DNA from: Candidatus Oxydemutatoraceae bacterium
GTDB taxonomy: Bacteria; Pseudomonadota; Gammaproteobacteria; Poriferisulfidales; Oxydemutatoraceae
NCBI GenBank assembly: GCA_965220085.1
Contig: CBDCOZ010000002.1
Coordinates: 166,215-230,214 of the forward strand
DNA length: 64,000 nucleotides
Direction: 5' to 3'
Of the stretch, positions 34,448 to 42,787 are shown one piece after another. The translations under genes were made by a program, and so were the position numbers. How positions within the stretch are numbered: the first letter of the stretch is position 1; each line of letters begins with the position of its first letter. The notes under the pieces are model-generated. The model was given only the letters and a program-made list of their open reading frames with translations, was not told the origin of the DNA and searched no databases.

Positions 34448-35059
34448 ACCGGAGAGGGGAGCAATGATTAGTGCCAGCACGAAGCTTTCCCCCTCGTCGC
34501 ATCGTCTATCGTCTGTGGCTCGGACTCTGCGACTCTCAAAAAAAGCTCGGAGTCATAGCGGACTCTGCGACTCCTGCAAGGGGAGAGTGCGACCGGCACT
34601 CGCACACCTTGCGCTACGGTAGTCTCTGCGTTCCCTCACCGCATTGTCTGTCGCCTGTGGCCCGGACTCTGCGACTCCCGCGTGGGGAGCGTCGTGCCAG
34701 CACCCGCACAAAGCTTGCGCTGAGGAAAAGTCTATATAATATAGGCATTACGGGGATAAATGCGCCAGTTGCAAGGCGTGTGCAAATCGTGTATAGTGCA
34801 AGTTTTACAGGAAATGTGTGCGCAAACAATTAATCAAGGACACACAAACAACATAAGAAACCGCAAACGATTAAATATCGTTTGTGCTCTTATTACCGTG
34901 CTCTTATCACTGTGTTCCATAAACTGTTTGCGGAATGTTTATTGGAGGTTACGAAACCCGATGGAAAATATTTTGTATCATTATAGGCATCACCAAAGAT
35001 GTGTGCGCTCAATCGCAGGCGGGTGCAAAGGCCTTGTGATGCAGACTTCAGGAGGACGC

Positions 35060-36816
35060 ATGAAAATGTTTACAATGCTTAACCAATTCACCCCCCCCCC
35101 CCCCCCCTAGTCCTTGAGCGGATTTGCGTAGCACTGCTCGCTTGCGCTTTGTCTTTGCTTACGAACACCGCACACGCACAAACCAACAGCTGTGCGGCGG
35201 TCATCCACGGCACCGAATGCATGGACGCATGCCCCGCCGGATTCACCGCCACAACCCAAGACCGCGTGTGCATTGAAAACGCGCACATCGATGGCGCGAA
35301 CAAATGCGAAGCCAAAGGATGGACAACCCGACTGGAGATTGCCGGCTTCGCCTTTTCCCTTTGTAACATAAAAAACAAAGACCCGACATCAACCCAGGAC
35401 TTTTGCATTTTGGGCATCAACTGCGCAGACCGTTTCGGTCCGGACCTTGACTTTCCGCAACGCCCGGCGGACGACCCGGCAACGGCGGAAGACGAAAGCG
35501 ACCCGCGCTATGTCTACAACTGCGACACGGGCGGAACCACCGGACATCTTCCGGCGACTTTCGCCGACGGGCGCACGATGTGCGAATGTCCCGCCGCCGC
35601 GACAGAAAACGCGGACGGCGTGTGCGTTTGTCCGGCGCAAACCGTCTTGCTGGGCGAGGCTTGCCTCGCCGACACGCCGGAAAACAGATGCAAAGCGGCG
35701 GGATGGACGGTCTCAACCGACAATCAATGCGTCGTCCCCATCACCTCCCCGGACGGCGGCAATGCGGACGGATGCTTCTTGGCCGGCAACGGCAGTCCGC
35801 AATGCGCCGATGTGTTCGGACCGGATCTGTCGTTTCCAGACCCTTCGACCGACTCCGCCGCGCGGTTTGTCTACGACTGCGGTCTGGACATGATCCCGCC
35901 GCGGGCAAACACCGACGGCGAAACCGAATGCGCGCCCGACCCGCAAGCGTGCGGGTTCAGCGACGTAGCAAGCACATTCAGCGGTCAGGACAGTGCGCAA
36001 CAAATTTCCATGCAGTTTGATGTCTGCGCGGCAAAAGGATGGCAGGCGAAAAAGCATCCCAGTTTTGAATCCGTTTTGAAGTCTTGCTACTGCGACATCA
36101 ATGTGCGGGACGCGTCAGCCGCAGTAGCATGCCCCTACTCCCACTCTTCCTCCCGCTTCGGAAATGTCAGCGGAAATACCTTCCTTCGCCATCACTTCGG
36201 CCCCGCCCTGCAATACCTCCCGCAATGGACGGCCGAAAATGCGGACACCTGCTTTGTGTCGCATTGTCCGGACGGGATGGAACCGACCGAGTTCAACACC
36301 AACGGCGCGACCGAATGCCTGGCGCCCAGCGGGACGGTTTGCGGGGAGTTGAGTCCGGCGAAACGCTTTGACGGCAGCGCCTGCGTGGAAGACTGCGCGA
36401 TGGCGGCGACATTGAACGAGGCGGCGAATGTGTGCGAATGCCAAGCGCCCAATGTGGGGACGGGTTCGGATTGCCGTGCGCCGAGCCCACAGGTTTGCGC
36501 GGGTTTGACACCGGCAAAATTCTTCAACGAAACAGCCTGCGTTGATTTTGTTTTGTGCGCCGCACCGGCGACATTGAACGAGGCGACGAATGTTTGCGCA
36601 TGCAATTCGCCAAATGTGGGGACGGGTTCGGATTGCCGCGCACCGAGCATACAGGCTTGCGCGGGTTTGACGCCGGCGAAACACTTTGACGGGGCGACCT
36701 GCGTTAATCTTGTTTTCTGCGACGCGCCGCTGGTGCCGGACATAGCGACGAATACCTGCGTGTCCGGCGATATCAACCTGCGCCTGCGCATCTTCCTGGA
36801 AGGCCCGTTGCGGTAG
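35060..36816 (+). CDS. Phase-variable cysteine-rich (EGF/furin-like repeat) secreted protein, FLEGPLR family (out of frame)
   Basis: MKMFTMLNQFT then C17 then TAG; adding one C joins LVLERICVALLACALSLLTNTAHA|Q and the Cys-rich ORF ending INLRLRIFLEGPLR*. Confidence 0.82.
35091..35107 (+). repeat. Poly-C tract (C17)
   Basis: Direct count. Confidence 0.9.
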
Positions 36817-37395
36817 TGCGAGCATCCCCTCGCCGCATCGTCTATCGCATCATCTCGCAAGCACACCGGAGAGGGGAACGATGATTGGCGCAAGCACACA
36901 GCTTTCCCTCTCACCGCATTGTCTGTCGCCTGTGGCCCGGACTCTGCGACTCCCGCGTGGGGAGCGTCGTGCCAGCACCCGCACAAAGCTTGCGCTGAGG
37001 AAAAGTCTATATAATATAGGCATTACGGGGGATAAATGCGCCAGTTGCAAGGCGTGTGCAAATCGTGTATAGTGCAAGTTTTGCAGGAAATGTGTACGCA
37101 AACAGCAGTTTAATGAGGCACAGTGATAAGAGCACAAACAACTTTGTTGTTTGTGGCTTTTTCATGAGAGCACGGTAATAAGAGCACAAACGATATTTAA
37201 TCGTTTGTGGTTCCATAAACTGTTTGTGGTTTCTTAAGCTGTTTGTGTTCCATAAACTGTTTGCGGAATGTTTATTGGAGGTTGTACGGAACCCGATGGA
37301 AAATATTTTGTACCATTATAGGCATCATCAAAGATGCGCGCGCTCAATCACAGGGCGGGTGCAAAGACCTTATAATGCAAACTTTAGGAGGATGC

Positions 37396-38382
37396 ATGAA
37401 AATGTTTACAATGTTTAACCAATTCACCCCCCCCCCCCCCCCCCCCCCCCCTCATGTAGCTGCTGAACAGCGGCTCAGTTGCCGTAGCCTGCGGTCGTTG
37501 ACCATCCTCGCTTTGTTTGCGTTGTACGGCACGGCACAGGCGCAGGACAGTGCGCCGGACTTTGGCGATGCATCGGTTGCGGATCAGGGTTGGCTGACCG
37601 GCACAGCGCTCAGTCTGGTGTTGCCTGAGGCTACCGGCGGCGATGGCGCTCTCTCATACACGCTGACCCCGGCTTTGCCGGCGGGCCTGACCTTTGATGC
37701 GACCGCCCGCGCCATCAGCGGCACGCCGACCGCTGTGGCGACCGAAGCCGCCTATGCCTACACGGTCACCGATAGCGACAGCAACACCATGTCCGCCGAT
37801 GCGGACACCTTGACTTTTGCCATCATCGTGGAAAGCGCTCCCGACAGGCTTTGCACCCGTCGGGGCTGGACTTACGACACCGCTTCCGACAAATGCCAAA
37901 TCCCCCTTTTCTCAGGCGGAATCAACTTTGACGGATGCTTCTTCTCCGGAGACGATGCCCCCCAATGCACCGATGTCTTCGGCGGATCACTCGCCATTCC
38001 CTCCACTCTGACCGGAGTCGCACTGTCTCTTTACAACGCCTTTCACGCCGCCGCCATCGACCCTAATACGAGCTCCCATGTTGCCCCCGCCGCCGCCATT
38101 TGGCGCGATGCCGTTGTGGCGCGGCACACCGGCGATCCAGACTACGCCGACGGCCCCGTCGCCCACTCTGCGGTCACCAGCAGTCTTATAAACGAATTTA
38201 TCTCCGAGCGGTTGGGGCATCATTTCAACGCCAACGGAATTCCCTTTGAGGACGACAGCGAAGACTTTGAAAGTGAAATCCGCACCGCCTTTGCCCAAAT
38301 CCCCGTGCGCCAACCCTTCGTCTTCCCATCGGACACGCTCAACTTGCGGTTGCGCATCTTCCTCGAAGGCCCGTTGCGGTAG
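37396..38382 (+). CDS. Phase-variable putative-Ig (He_PIG) protein, FLEGPLR array member 1 (in frame)
   Basis: MKMFTMFNQFT-P8, signal peptide ..GTAQAQ, LPAGLTFD..ISGTPT Ig motif, Cys module, FLEGPLR end. Confidence 0.85.
   Translation: MKMFTMFNQFTPPPPPPPPHVAAEQRLSCRSLRSLTILALFALYGTAQAQDSAPDFGDASVADQGWLTGTALSLVLPEATGGDGALSYTLTPALPAGLTFDATARAISGTPTAVATEAAYAYTVTDSDSNTMSADADTLTFAIIVESAPDRLCTRRGWTYDTASDKCQIPLFSGGINFDGCFFSGDDAPQCTDVFGGSLAIPSTLTGVALSLYNAFHAAAIDPNTSSHVAPAAAIWRDAVVARHTGDPDYADGPVAHSAVTSSLINEFISERLGHHFNANGIPFEDDSEDFESEIRTAFAQIPVRQPFVFPSDTLNLRLRIFLEGPLR
37427..37451 (+). repeat. Poly-C tract (C25)
   Basis: Direct count; keeps the reading frame. Confidence 0.9.
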
Positions 38383-38389
38383 CGCGAGT

Positions 38390-39352
38390 ATGTTTGCGAT
38401 GTTCACACCCATTTACACCCGTCGGCGGAACAGAACACGCACTCGGCGTAGCCTGCGGTCGTTGACCATCCTCGCTTTGTTTGCGTTGTGCGGCACGGCA
38501 CAGGCGCAGGACAGCGCGCCGGACTTTGGCGATGCATCGGTTGCGGATCAGGGTTGGCTGACCGGCACAGCGCTCAGTCTGGAGTTGCCTGAGGCTACCG
38601 GCGGCGATGGCGCGCTCTCATACAGCCTGACCCCGGCTTTGCCGGCAGGCCTGACCTTTGATGCGACCGCCCGCGCCATCAGCGGCACACCGACCGCTGT
38701 GGCGACCGAAGCCGCCTATACCTACACGGTCACCGATAGCGACAGCAACACCATGTCCGCCGATGCGGACACCTTGACTTTTGCCATCATCGTGGAAAGC
38801 GCTCCCGACAGGCTTTGCACCCGTCGGGGTTGGACTTACGACACCGCTTCCGACAAATGCCAAATCCCCCTTTTCTCAGGCGGAATCAACTTTGACGGAT
38901 GCTTCTTCTCCGGAGACGATGCCCCCCAATGCACCGATGTCTTCGGCGGATCACTCGCCATTCCCTCCACTCTGACCGGAGTCGCACTGTCTCTTTACAA
39001 TGCCTTTCACGCCGTAGCCATCCTCTCCGGAAACCCCCCATGGGTCCCGGTCATCGCCGTCGCTTGGCGCGATGCCGTTGTGGCGCGGCACACCGGCGAT
39101 CCGGACTACGCCGACGGCCCCATCGCCGCCCTTGCGGGCAACACTCGCACTCAGAATGCGCTCGCCCTCGAGATCCTTAATACGAATGGTTTCGTTCCCA
39201 ACGGAATTCCCTTTGAAGATGCCGTCGCCGCCGACTATGAGCATGAAATCCGCACCGCTTTTGCCCTAATCCCCGTACGCCAACCCTTCGTCTTCCCATC
39301 AGACACGCTCAATTTGCGGTTGCGCATCTTTCTAGAAGGCCCGCTACGGTAG
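38390..39352 (+). CDS. He_PIG protein, FLEGPLR array member 2
   Basis: ATG 7 nt after the previous stop; MFAMFTPIYTRRR leader; near-identical N-terminal two thirds. Confidence 0.85.
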   Translation: MFAMFTPIYTRRRNRTRTRRSLRSLTILALFALCGTAQAQDSAPDFGDASVADQGWLTGTALSLELPEATGGDGALSYSLTPALPAGLTFDATARAISGTPTAVATEAAYTYTVTDSDSNTMSADADTLTFAIIVESAPDRLCTRRGWTYDTASDKCQIPLFSGGINFDGCFFSGDDAPQCTDVFGGSLAIPSTLTGVALSLYNAFHAVAILSGNPPWVPVIAVAWRDAVVARHTGDPDYADGPIAALAGNTRTQNALALEILNTNGFVPNGIPFEDAVAADYEHEIRTAFALIPVRQPFVFPSDTLNLRLRIFLEGPLR

Positions 39353-39359
39353 CGCGAGT

Positions 39360-40325
39360 ATGTTTGCGACGTTCACACCCATTTACACCCGTCGGCGGAC
39401 AACACGCCCTCGGCGTAGCCTCTGGTCGCTGACCATCCTCGCTTTGTTTGCGTTGTGCGGCACGGCACAGGCACAGAACAGCGCGCCGGACTTTGGCGAT
39501 GCATCGGTTGCGGATCAGGATTGGTTGACCGGCGTAGCGCTCAGTCTGGTGTTGCCCGCGGCTACTGGCGGTAATGGCGCTCTCTCATACAGCCTGACCC
39601 CGGCTTTGCCGGCGGGGCTGACCTTTGATGCGGACACCCGCGCCATCAGCGGCACACCGGCCTCTACGGCAACCGAAGCCGCCTATACCTACACGGTCAC
39701 CGATAGCGACAGCAACACCATGTCCGCCGATGCGGATACTTTGACTTTTGCCATCACCGTGGAAAGCGGAACTCCCGACAGGCTTTGCACCCGTCAGGGT
39801 TGGACTCACGACACCGCCTCCGACAAATGCCAAATCCCTCTGACCTCGGGCGGACGCGACTTTGACGGTTGCTTCCTCTCCGGAGACGATGATCCCCAAT
39901 GCGCCGATGTCTTCGGCGAATCACTCGCCTTTCCCTCCTCCGCTCTGACCGGAGTCGCATTGTCCCTTTACAACGCCTTTCACCGTGAGGCTTTCAGAAC
40001 CGACAACTCTGCCGGCGGCTCTGCAATTCGCGCAAATGCCATCGCTTGGCGCGATGCCGTCGTTGCGCGACACAACGGCGATCCGAACTACGCCGCCGGC
40101 CCCGTCGCCGCCCTTGCGGATAGCTCCTTTGCTCTAAGCATCTTCCTCGCCCAACAGTTGGAGATTCATTTCAAAGACAACGGAATCCCCTTTGACAAAG
40201 ATACCAACGACCTTGCGAATGAAATCAGCGTTGCCTTTTCCAAAATCCCGGTACGCCAACCCTTCGCCTTCATGAGCTCGATCAACCTGCGGTTGCGCAT
40301 CTTCCTGGAAGGCCCGTTGCGGTAG
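39360..40325 (+). CDS. He_PIG protein, FLEGPLR array member 3
   Basis: Same architecture, different variable region. Confidence 0.85.
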   Translation: MFATFTPIYTRRRTTRPRRSLWSLTILALFALCGTAQAQNSAPDFGDASVADQDWLTGVALSLVLPAATGGNGALSYSLTPALPAGLTFDADTRAISGTPASTATEAAYTYTVTDSDSNTMSADADTLTFAITVESGTPDRLCTRQGWTHDTASDKCQIPLTSGGRDFDGCFLSGDDDPQCADVFGESLAFPSSALTGVALSLYNAFHREAFRTDNSAGGSAIRANAIAWRDAVVARHNGDPNYAAGPVAALADSSFALSIFLAQQLEIHFKDNGIPFDKDTNDLANEISVAFSKIPVRQPFAFMSSINLRLRIFLEGPLR

Positions 40326-40332
40326 CGCGAGT

Positions 40333-41283
40333 ATGTTTGCGATGTTCACACCCATTTACATCCGTCGGCGGACAACACGCACTCGGCGCAGCCTTTGGTC
40401 GCTGACCATCCTCGCTTTGTTTGCGTTGTGCGGCACGGCGCAGGCACAGAACAGTGCGCCGGACTTTGGCGATGCATCGGTTGCGGATCAGGGTTGGCTG
40501 ACCGGCACAGCGCTCAGTCTGGTGTTGCCCGCGGCTACCGGCGGCGATGGCGCTCTCTCATACAGCTTGACCCCGGCTTTGCCGGCAGGCCTGACCTTTG
40601 ATGCGACCGCCCGCGCCATCAGCGGCACACCGACCGCTGTGGCGACCGAAGCCGCCTATACCTACACGGTCACCGATAGCGACAGCAACACCATGTCCGC
40701 CGATGCGGACACCTTGACTTTTGCCATCATCGTGGAAAGCGTTCCCGACAGGCTTTGCACCCGTCGGGGTTGGACTTACGACACCGCTTCCGACAAATGC
40801 CAAATCCCCCTTTTCTCAGGCGGAATCAACTTTGACGGATGCTTCTTCTCCGGAGACGATGCCCCCCAATGCACCGATGTCTTCGGCGGATCACTCGCCA
40901 TTCCCTCCACTCTGACCGGAGTCGCACTGTCTCTTTACAATGCCTTTCACGCCGTAGCCATCGCCGCACACGCCGGATATCTCACAGCCGCCGCCGCCAT
41001 TTGGCGCGATGCCGTCGTGGCGCGGCACACTGGCGAGTCAAACTACGCCGCCGGCCCCGTCGCCGCCCTTGCGAACAATTCCCTTCCTATAAACGGCCTC
41101 ATCGTTCAGGAGTTGGGGCATCATCTCAACGAGAGCGGAATCCCCTTTGACGACGACACCGACGGCGACCTTGAAAAGGAAATCCGCGCCGCCTTTTCCA
41201 AAATCCCGGTACGCCAACCCTTCGCCTTCATGTCTTCGATCAACCTGCGGTTGCGCATCTTTCTTGAAGGCCCGTTGCGGTAG
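40333..41283 (+). CDS. He_PIG protein, FLEGPLR array member 4
   Basis: Same architecture, different variable region. Confidence 0.85.
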   Translation: MFAMFTPIYIRRRTTRTRRSLWSLTILALFALCGTAQAQNSAPDFGDASVADQGWLTGTALSLVLPAATGGDGALSYSLTPALPAGLTFDATARAISGTPTAVATEAAYTYTVTDSDSNTMSADADTLTFAIIVESVPDRLCTRRGWTYDTASDKCQIPLFSGGINFDGCFFSGDDAPQCTDVFGGSLAIPSTLTGVALSLYNAFHAVAIAAHAGYLTAAAAIWRDAVVARHTGESNYAAGPVAALANNSLPINGLIVQELGHHLNESGIPFDDDTDGDLEKEIRAAFSKIPVRQPFAFMSSINLRLRIFLEGPLR

Positions 41284-41584
41284 CGCGCGCAACATTCGCC
41301 CCTTGCGGACTCACACTACACACTCCTACCGCACCATCCCGCAAGCACACCGGCGAGGGGAACGATGATTAGCGCCAGCACGAAGCTTTCTCCTCGCCGC
41401 ATCGTCTATCGCCCGACAGCTCGGACTCTGCGACTCTCCGGCGAGGGGAGGGTGCGGTTGGCGCAAGGGCAAAGCCTGCGCTTAGGAATACTCTATATAA
41501 TGCGGGCGTCGTCAAAGATGAATGCGTTGATTGCGGGGCGTGTGCGAGTCGTGCATATTGCAAGCTTGCCGAGGATACATTAAA

Positions 41585-42787
41585 GTGTTTGCGATGTTCA
41601 CACCCATTTGCACCCGCCGACGGACAACACGAACTCGGCTTAGCCTGCGGTCGCTCATTCTGCCGGCGCTGTTTGTTGTCTGCGCTCAGGCGCAGGCGCA
41701 GAACACTGTCGCCACCGGGGAACCGGCGGTGACGGCGGCGGACAGCGCTGACCTGACTATGGTGGGGCCCAATGAGGACATTGTGCTGACTGCGGCCCGC
41801 GGCACGATAATGGATGATACCGATGACATCACCACATTCAGCCCGACCTGGGCCTGGCAACAGGCCGATGCCCCGAACACCGGCACTCCGGCGGACAGCG
41901 ACTACTCCGCCATAGCCGGCGCCACCGCCGCCACCTTCACACCCCTGCAGGAACATGGCGGCAAGTTCATCCGCGCCTGCGCCACCTTTGACGATGATGC
42001 CGGCAACAGCGAGACCCGATGCTGGACCTCCGCCGCCGCTGTGGTCAATGTCAATGACAAACCGGTTGCGCTGGACAACACCATCTTTGTGCCGGTGGGC
42101 GGCAGTTACACTTTCTCGGCGGACGACTTTCCGTTCACCGATGAAGAGCGTGACACTCTGCGTTGGGTGACCGTTAACACCGTGCCCTCCAGAGGCACTG
42201 TGGCCATATTGGGATCAGGCGCCAGCAGAAGCTTTGACGTTTCGAAGTCACATTTGGATAGCAACAACCTGACCTACGTCCCTTCCGCTGATGCCACCGC
42301 TCCCATGGCCGGCTATACCACCTTTACCTTCGTTGTGAGAGCCGGCGGCGGTAACCGCGAACACGCCAGTGCCGCCGCCACCATGACCATAGATCTGGTG
42401 CAGGCCACGCAATCGGCGGCAACCGGCACACTGATTGTGACGGCGGCATCGGGCGCAGCCTACAACGAGGGCGCGGAACTGACCGCCTCCACCGCCGGCA
42501 TCATCGAACCCAACGGCATCCGCCCCCACGGCCTGATGTGGCAATGGCAATCCGCCAGCGCGCCAATCAGCGGCGCCCCGCCCGCCAGCGCATATGGCGA
42601 CATCACTTCGTTCACCGACGCCACCTTCACCCCTTCGCAAGCGTATGTCGGCACATACATCCGCGTTTGCCTCAATTTCACCGATGGCTTGGGCACCGCC
42701 GAGGGCCCGTTCTGCTCCGCCGGCGCCCGTGTGTTTGACGCCTTGCGCTTGCGGCTGCGCCTCTTCCTTGAAGGCCCGTTGCGGTAG
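41585..42787 (+). CDS. Ig/cadherin-like secreted protein, FLEGPLR family
   Basis: GTG 41585 or ATG 41594 start, signal peptide ..CAQAQAQ, WAWQQ/DFPFTD repeats, ends ALRLRLRLFLEGPLR*. Confidence 0.83.
   Translation: MFAMFTPICTRRRTTRTRLSLRSLILPALFVVCAQAQAQNTVATGEPAVTAADSADLTMVGPNEDIVLTAARGTIMDDTDDITTFSPTWAWQQADAPNTGTPADSDYSAIAGATAATFTPLQEHGGKFIRACATFDDDAGNSETRCWTSAAAVVNVNDKPVALDNTIFVPVGGSYTFSADDFPFTDEERDTLRWVTVNTVPSRGTVAILGSGASRSFDVSKSHLDSNNLTYVPSADATAPMAGYTTFTFVVRAGGGNREHASAAATMTIDLVQATQSAATGTLIVTAASGAAYNEGAELTASTAGIIEPNGIRPHGLMWQWQSASAPISGAPPASAYGDITSFTDATFTPSQAYVGTYIRVCLNFTDGLGTAEGPFCSAGARVFDALRLRLRLFLEGPLR

Follow-up and report, generated by a model that had tools for sequence, protein, structure and literature searches.

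Phase-variable surface protein families are textbook material for a few pathogens, in which one switch usually controls one gene. The opa genes of Neisseria form a surface multigene family with a slippage repeat in the signal-peptide region, conserved frameworks, hypervariable regions, and recombination among paralogs; they are scattered, each has its own pentamer repeat, and their products have a beta-barrel fold. Neisseria pilE/pilS, Borrelia vlsE, and Anaplasma msp2 rely on donor cassettes that have neither start codons nor signal peptides. Phase variation of HpuAB in Neisseria meningitidis is ascribed to a poly-G tract in hpuA in a paper whose reference list names hpuAB as an operon (PMC3786947). 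The stretch analyzed here, called the window, comprises 64,000 nucleotides (nt) of Candidatus Oxydemutatoraceae bacterium (GenBank assembly GCA_965220085.1, contig CBDCOZ010000002.1, positions 166,215 to 230,214 of the forward strand), and all coordinates below are window positions. Positions 37396 to 41283 contain four complete tandem open reading frames (ORFs) on the plus strand. This array is probably a phase-variable, translationally coupled four-gene operon of paralogous secreted, adhesin-like proteins, in which gene conversion maintains similar scaffolds and the inserted helical heads vary from unit to unit.

The four units lie 964 to 973 nt apart and encode products of 316 to 328 residues, and units 2, 3, and 4 show protein identities of 83%, 73%, and 82%, respectively, with unit 1. 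The order of parts is common to all four: start, signal peptide, He_PIG immunoglobulin (Ig)-like domain, module with four cysteines (Cys module), variable stretch of about 100 residues, the terminal peptide NLRLRIFLEGPLR, and stop. No unit is interrupted by a stop codon or a frameshift. All three junctions read TAG, the 7-nt spacer CGCGAGT, and ATG. The motifs GGAG, GAGG, and AGGA are absent from the 20 nt upstream of the three internal ATGs (a GAAGG in the tail of the array units lies 20 nt upstream), and the AGGAGGA before unit 1 is the only strong Shine-Dalgarno sequence of the array. A first-pass annotation, made from the letters alone, had described four units of about 1 kb, with units 2 to 4 starting 7 nt after the previous stop and lacking a promoter module and a ribosome-binding site; the ORFs, their spacing, and the restriction of the promoter module and AGGAGGA to the region before unit 1 bear this out. 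Unit 1 has two ATGs, at 37396 and 37402, and the latter is homologous to the starts of units 2 to 4. Judged from this match, the array probably originated by tandem duplication of a unit running from this ATG to 7 nt past the stop codon. As read from the sequence, each unit encodes a putative signal peptide with an arginine-rich n-region, a hydrophobic core, and AQA followed by Q. The n-region pattern T-R-R-S-L-[RW]-S-L (38420-38450 and equivalents) resembles the twin-arginine motif, and the genome contains tatC; Sec export seems more likely, because many family members have R-L instead of R-R and the mature proteins carry disulfide-type cysteines. The k-mer contigs of run X1, which is probably the source sample and checks the assembly rather than providing independent biology, agree at every letter with the unique parts of units 1 to 4, and one of them bridges the junction of units 2 and 3.

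The poly-C tract of unit 1 is of the type found in contingency loci, being a homopolymeric tract in the 5′ coding region at which slippage would shift the reading frame. Among the 11 tract lengths tested (20 to 30 C), 22, 25, and 28 C correspond to the ON state, with products of 327 to 329 amino acids (aa), and the other eight yield only 19 to 24 aa because both alternative frames meet a stop codon 3 to 4 codons past the tract. The upstream family member, designated gene A, has 17 C, which is out of frame (OFF), and would be ON at 15, 18, or 21 C; since unit 1 is in frame as sequenced, the window contains a locus in each state. If unit 1 were OFF, ribosomes would not translate about 930 nt that precede three genes without a ribosome-binding site. 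The genome contains rho (693.7 bits), which makes polarity plausible, as well as efp and mutS. The former of these two genes matters for the translation of eight consecutive prolines, and, given the presence of mutS, a loss of mismatch repair does not account for the tracts.

These features suggest the following mechanism. The four units would be transcribed together from the single promoter module upstream of unit 1, translation would begin at the sole strong ribosome-binding site, and ribosomes finishing one unit would reinitiate on the next after a 7-nt gap. Slippage at the unit 1 tract of 25 C would shift the frame and end translation at one of the early stop codons described above. This would remove the coupling for units 2 to 4 and probably expose untranslated RNA to Rho, so that the four proteins would switch together. 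Each product would be exported by its own signal peptide, carry two disulfides in the Cys module and the C-terminal peptide LRLRIFLEGPLR, and presumably reach the cell surface, where it might bind a ligand. Gene conversion would hold the Ig and Cys scaffold near-identical among the units. The inserted five-helix bundle would differ in each of them, and one switch would thereby display four versions of a putative binding head.

The array belongs to a family whose members share a C-terminal tail peptide. The tail, ..RLR[LIV]FLEGPLR, ends 214 ORFs of the 2.49-Mb genome, including 23 fragments shorter than 60 aa and 185 ORFs of at least 150 aa. A run of 8 to 28 C is present at the 5′ end of 82 of these 185 ORFs, in a genome that has only 100 C or G runs of at least 8 in total. 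With a follower defined as a tail gene starting within 60 nt of the stop codon of another tail gene, a 5′ tract is found in none of the 40 followers versus 82 of the 145 head or solitary genes (57%). The head has a tract in 14 of the 21 tight runs, and a follower has one in none of them. In addition, the stop-start overlap TAATG or TGATG occurs in 28 of the 39 genes with a follower versus 13 of the 146 genes without one, although these gene counts are not independent and are inflated by shared ancestry within arrays. The head/follower pattern is present in a dozen or more separate arrays. The motif GGAGG inside the tail occurs in 9 of the 39 genes with a follower versus 12 of the 146 others (p = 0.02), a difference that is likewise inflated by shared ancestry; the motif does not occur in the studied array, and its enrichment as a Shine-Dalgarno sequence is suggestive only. 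GAG is used as the tail glutamate codon in 20 of the 39 genes with a follower versus 26 of the 146 others, which places GGAGG about 10 nt before the overlapping start. This bias may reflect selection for a ribosome-binding site hidden in the tail codons.

Identity among the four units is distributed unevenly along the gene. Over codons 81 to 222, units 1, 2, and 4 are 98 to 100% identical at the nucleotide level and unit 3 is 80 to 95% identical, and thus the near-identity through LYNAFH that had been ascribed to all four units holds for three of them and not for unit 3. Past LYNAFH, nucleotide identity falls to 40 to 70% within a few codons, and the three variable patches with indels proposed in the first-pass annotation are indeed found between the anchors WRDAVVARH..G..YA.GP, GIPF, and EI..AF..IPVRQPF. 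The alignment also agrees with its view of the units as mosaics: in the tail region, VFPSDTLN is common to units 1 and 2 and AFMSSIN to units 3 and 4, and the Cys module sequence is common to units 1, 2, and 4. Unit 4 groups with unit 3 at codons 24 to 80 and 301 to 322 and is identical to unit 2 over codons 91 to 220, and unit 3 is the odd one out over codons 81 to 222, with 41 singletons. The 43 informative sites comprise 27 that pair unit 1 with 2 and unit 3 with 4, 10 that pair 1 with 4 and 2 with 3, and 6 that pair 1 with 3 and 2 with 4. The three patterns occur in clusters rather than at random (permutation p = 0.003), and the resulting blocks call for one or more conversion or recombination tracts of about 400 nt. 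The recombination test suggested by the first-pass annotation therefore gave a signal, and recombination among the units is real.

Mosaic units with clustered incongruent sites would also be expected under silent-cassette antigenic variation, in which unit 1 alone would be expressed and units 2 to 4 would be promoterless donors acting by gene conversion, as pilS does into pilE. The absence of a promoter module and a Shine-Dalgarno sequence from units 2 to 4 fits this explanation as well, and silent donors recombining into the poly-C expression site had been one of the two options of the first-pass annotation. However, every unit has an ATG, a full signal peptide, and a constrained tail, and units 2 to 4 are complete genes rather than the incomplete donors of the pilE/pilS type. 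Only one conversion tract is clear, and it is found in unit 4 rather than unit 1 and in the conserved rather than the variable part; a single genome gives no direction of transfer. Truncated or partial donors of the variable region are found nowhere else in the genome: outside the array, a whole-genome tblastn search with the variable segments returned nothing above 48% identity, and blastn-short returned only the conserved anchors. Furthermore, follower starts that overlap the preceding stop, as seen genome-wide, are sensible only if followers are translated. Taken with the selective constraint on the scaffold and tail described below, this makes silent cassettes highly improbable. A diversity-generating retroelement target, which would have a near-identical template repeat, differences confined to adenines, and no indels, was also considered and was rejected on the basis of the indels, the identity of 40 to 70%, and the lack of a second copy of the variable segments; a reverse transcriptase was not searched for.

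Selection was assessed by pairwise Nei-Gojobori estimates and by maximum likelihood (ML) codon models, which agreed, using four sequences with patches near saturation. For the scaffold, the ML ratio of nonsynonymous (dN) to synonymous (dS) substitution rates, omega, is 0.39, and that of the anchors within the variable domain is 0.40. The 52 codons of the three patches and the pre-tail stretch together give 1.30, the entire variable region gives 0.93, and the tail gives 0.001. The scaffold ratio differs significantly from 1 (twice the log-likelihood difference [2dlnL], 15.3), and the patch value is clearly above 0.39 (2dlnL, 25.2). In the tail, dN is 0 at a dS of 0.2 to 0.9. Synonymous divergence rises as well, from 0.05 to 0.2 in the constant part to 0.3 to 0.55 in the variable part, and the two halves therefore differ in history and not simply in selection: either the scaffold was homogenized or the heads were imported or are older. 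In patch 1, the pairwise comparison of units 2 and 4 gave a value of 8.5, which was rejected as a sign of positive selection, since it rests on a single synonymous difference.

The N-terminal domain of all four units is assigned to PF05345 (He_PIG) at 46.6 to 51.3 bits versus a gathering cutoff of 24. In two separate AlphaFold2 models, which were built from shallow alignments of 20 and 21 rows, the predicted local distance difference test (pLDDT) score is 84 to 97 for the Ig domain and 87 to 93 for the five helices of the insertion; the Cys module (pLDDT, 38 to 61) and the tail are modeled poorly. The solved fold nearest to the Ig model is the cadherin-like module of SraP, PDB 4m02 (Foldseek E value, 9e-7; root mean square deviation, 2.3 over 100 columns). 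The helical bundle has no convincing solved relative, with a best Foldseek PDB E value of 2.5 and a best VIA Z of 5.4 in the generic helical-bundle range; the novelty of the fold does not follow from this lack of a match. No Pfam or NCBIfam family covers the Cys module, the helical insertion, or the tail, and the ESM Atlas gave no usable match for residues 140 to 316. The same residues of unit 4 have 46 matches at an E value of ≤0.001 among 1.84 billion representative proteins. The Cys module (window positions 37846-38040 and equivalents; proteins P0121-P0164), C..GW..C.IP..C..P.C..VFG..FP, is present in up to 24 copies in giant proteins of other organisms, several of which end in another conserved Cys-rich C-terminal domain (..GLDA.GTFC.L.S.DAFPCRGLF..) and not in the array tail. 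In its fuller form, the module continues to YVFNC..GATEC, and the variable stretch interrupts it as an inserted segment of about 95 residues. In paralogs P0153, P0155, and P0141, which have no insertion, ..FP.. leads straight to ..YVFNCG... In the four units, the second half of the module (NCG..GATEC) is missing, and IPVRQPF.F runs directly into the tail. Outside the source genome, the insertion is found in only 2 of the 46 matches (P0124 and P0129), and inside it, 15 further paralogs have the insertion at 33 to 45% identity. None of the 30 relatives searched shares the genus, and their matches are mostly to the He_PIG domain and mostly within giant ORFs; one match, in G001, reaches query residue 220. 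A scan of genome contigs detected only three He_PIG loci, in unrelated metagenome-assembled genomes.

Positions at which the four units differ are also those with the greatest variability in 17 other sequences, namely, 15 same-genome paralogs, P0131, and the outside protein P0129 (Spearman coefficient, 0.49; p = 1e-7). Since the variable positions coincide, the patches are the least constrained parts of a real domain family and not random decay. This bears on the suggestion that the array is recent junk, a functionless by-product of tandem duplication whose variable half is decaying under relaxed constraint, for which the omega of 0.93 over the whole variable region and of about 1 in the patches could be cited. 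Besides the shared pattern of variability, the anchors within the variable domain are constrained, the domain is predicted to fold confidently, and all units are free of stop codons and frameshifts. Decay would not leave the first 220 codons 98 to 100% identical, and we regard this explanation as very unlikely.

Four observations weigh against a coupled operon with diversified heads. First, the studied array is among the 11 of 39 follower junctions without an overlap and has a 7-nt gap without a Shine-Dalgarno sequence. The gap sequence is exactly what normally follows terminal family genes (TAG CGCGAG..), which suggests a duplication junction that has not been tightened. Second, RNA structure at the junctions is no greater than in shuffled sequence (z, +1.2 to +1.7), and hence nothing there enforces dependence on upstream translation. 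Third, the excess of the patch omega (1.30) over 1 is not significant (2dlnL, 1.1); positive selection cannot be claimed from four sequences with near-saturated patches, and the diversifying selection put forward in the first-pass annotation is thus not demonstrated. Fourth, the single hint of tract-length variation, an X1 contig that crosses the tract with five fewer letters, a length that would be OFF, is explained equally well by homopolymer error.

The second of these points also makes de novo ribosome binding at unstructured junctions possible and so favors four independently expressed paralogs, which would depend on weak internal promoters or leaky initiation and of which the poly-C tract would control unit 1 only. 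Promoter-like hexamers do occur inside units 2 and 4 (38972-39001 and 40912-40941). However, they lie about 600 nt into the coding sequence and not before a start, the scan found 5 sites in total versus 3.5 expected by chance, and the three internal starts have no Shine-Dalgarno sequence. The complete absence of own switches from followers, compared with 57% of head or solitary genes, is hard to explain under separate regulation, and independent expression is accordingly considered unlikely. The coupled run under one poly-C switch, the second option of the first-pass annotation, is supported by inference from the distribution of tracts and overlaps across the genome, although the array itself, which conforms to the head/follower pattern, has a 7-nt gap and no overlap.

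The tail that unites the family comprises 13 residues without a hydrophobic or membrane helix. It is followed by TAG in 135, TAA in 51, and TGA in 28 ORFs, and synonymous codons differ at every tail position, which indicates that the peptide and not the DNA is conserved. The tail matches none of the known C-terminal sorting signals (LPXTG, PEP-CTERM, GlyGly-CTERM, the C-terminal domain of T9SS, and other NCBIfam sorting domains) and lacks the hydrophobic helix of the tripartite type, in which a motif precedes a transmembrane helix and a basic cluster; for six proteins examined, no NCBIfam family matched the tail at an E value of ≤1. A full-text literature search for the tail letters (supplements not covered) returned only an unrelated human phosphoproteomics paper. 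In a sister genus, the tail [IL]RVRVKVFLEGPLR is present on proteins of 447 to 4466 residues. Among the relatives, the tail pattern has 16 matches in G011, 2 each in G015 and G017, 1 in G002, and none in the 26 others, and no C or G run of at least 8 is found in the four G011 loci examined (L028 and L033-L035). Based on these comparisons, the tail seems to be older than the poly-C switches. A broader reading, which is possible but rather doubtful, is that the array is one of about 14 to 21 "batteries," in each of which a slippage tract in the head gene would flip a coupled set of paralogs with scaffolds made uniform by gene conversion and helical heads held different; whole sets of binding specificities would then change at once, involving about 200 proteins with one new 13-residue C-terminal tag. 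Such an arrangement would amount to a combinatorial surface coat in a nonpathogenic symbiont, unlike the one-gene-one-switch families of pathogens or silent cassettes.

The coordinates of the array and its neighbors are listed in Table 1.

Table 1. Features of the four-unit array and its flanking regions (window positions)
Feature	Positions	Strand	Evidence or remarks
Upstream family member, gene A	35060..36816	+	Same promoter, leader, and poly-C head; 17 C
Promoter module upstream of unit 1	36842..37081	+	Sigma-70-like TTGCAA-17-TATAGT at 37045-37073; consensus match only, 9/12 positions
Leader segment	37090..37280		Built of dispersed hairpin repeat CACAAAC...GTTTGTG
Shine-Dalgarno AGGAGGA of unit 1	37386..37392	+	Read from sequence
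Unit 1, 328 aa, head gene with switch	37396..38382	+	ORF
Poly-C tract, 25 C, Pro8 between start and signal peptide	37427..37451	+	In frame as sequenced
He_PIG (PF05345) Ig-like domain, unit 1; also in units 2-4	37576..37815	+	Pfam E value, 1.6e-13 to 4.6e-12
Variable helical subdomain, unit 1	38047..38340	+	Alignment, identity, model
Spacer CGCGAGT, 7 nt, unit 1/unit 2	38383..38389	+	Repeated at 39353-39359 and 40326-40332
Unit 2, 320 aa	38390..39352	+	Variable subdomain 39011-39310
Unit 3, 321 aa, most divergent scaffold	39360..40325	+	Variable subdomain 39984-40283
Unit 4, 316 aa, mosaic	40333..41283	+	Variable subdomain 40951-41241; tail 41242-41280
Downstream family member	41585..42787	+	Own GAGGA ribosome-binding site, GTG start, promoter-module copy, no poly-C

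Copies of the promoter module are located upstream of gene A (about 34600-34800) and upstream of the downstream family member (41326-41567), and the latter gene is outside the coupled run. Its leader resembles those of units 2 to 4 (MFTPICTRRR), and cadherin-like/Big_9 domains replace He_PIG. Gene A contains an internal 162-nt tandem repeat (36404-36727). The hairpin repeat of the leader has dozens of copies in the genome in both orientations (blastn), and a depth spike of 292 at 37122-37282 coincides with it. About 45 nt of this repeat are inverted between the leader of gene A (34820-34900) and that of unit 1, and a hairpin with a T-run at 37133-37155 looks like a plus-strand terminator. Some X1 contigs contained apparent rearrangements. 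A joint from 41595 to 39371 (back 2225) in one contig was rejected as an end-of-stretch or paralog artifact because the aligned stretch ended at 41600 and the leader of the next gene is paralogous to the unit starts. Further joints, including one to the opposite strand, at 37104-37240 cannot be assigned to the array locus because they fall in the dispersed hairpin repeat with its dozens of copies. Run X2, a second sample of the same study, covers 39441-39894 (front half of unit 3) and 41137-41268 (end of unit 4) without differences at a depth of about 14 to 16. It contains little of units 1 and 2 and may represent a different array, but holes in contigs prove nothing, and this was not used as a strain difference.

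In this genome, the switching unit appears to be an operon of paralogs. This design is found repeatedly, and about 1 ORF in 10 carries the same C-terminal peptide. If so, an uncultured bacterium that appears to be host associated would possess contingency loci on a scale like that of pathogens or beyond it, and tandem duplication with translational coupling would be a cheap route by which new variants come under an existing switch. Diversification would affect a small, new helical domain within a Cys-rich module that is likewise new, and this domain would therefore be a candidate binding head. With four genes in 4 kb, the array is also a compact test bed for the function of the tail.

Literature searches on sponge symbionts, phase variation, and homopolymeric tracts and on phase-variable operons and translational coupling (supplements not covered) returned pathogen papers only. 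The hpuAB operon resembles the array in having a homopolymeric tract in the 5′ coding part of the first gene, at which slippage switches the whole system (PMC3786947). It differs in that the downstream genes of the array are paralogs of the first gene and not a functional partner, that the tract is much longer (25 C), that the design recurs in 14 of the 21 tight runs of one family, and that switching of the array is a prediction. Like the opa family, the array combines a repeat near the signal-peptide-coding sequence, a conserved framework with hypervariable regions, and recombination among paralogs; in the array, however, the tract is in the head gene only and the followers ride along, and the predicted fold is unrelated, being an Ig domain with a Cys module and a helical bundle. 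The silent-cassette systems are similar in having tandem promoterless variant copies with mosaic sequences adjoining an expressed copy, whereas the copies of the array are all complete and under purifying selection, and there are no partial donors. The likeness to SraP and other adhesins with He_PIG modules is confined to the N-terminal domain, which matches PF05345 and whose model superposes on SraP; the C-terminal two-thirds of the array proteins have no described family, and the Cys module was modeled only at low confidence. Judged from its sequence, the array thus appears to be a contingency locus of a known kind, and what seems new is the co-switched paralogs, the long tracts, the repeated design, and the undescribed parts of the proteins.

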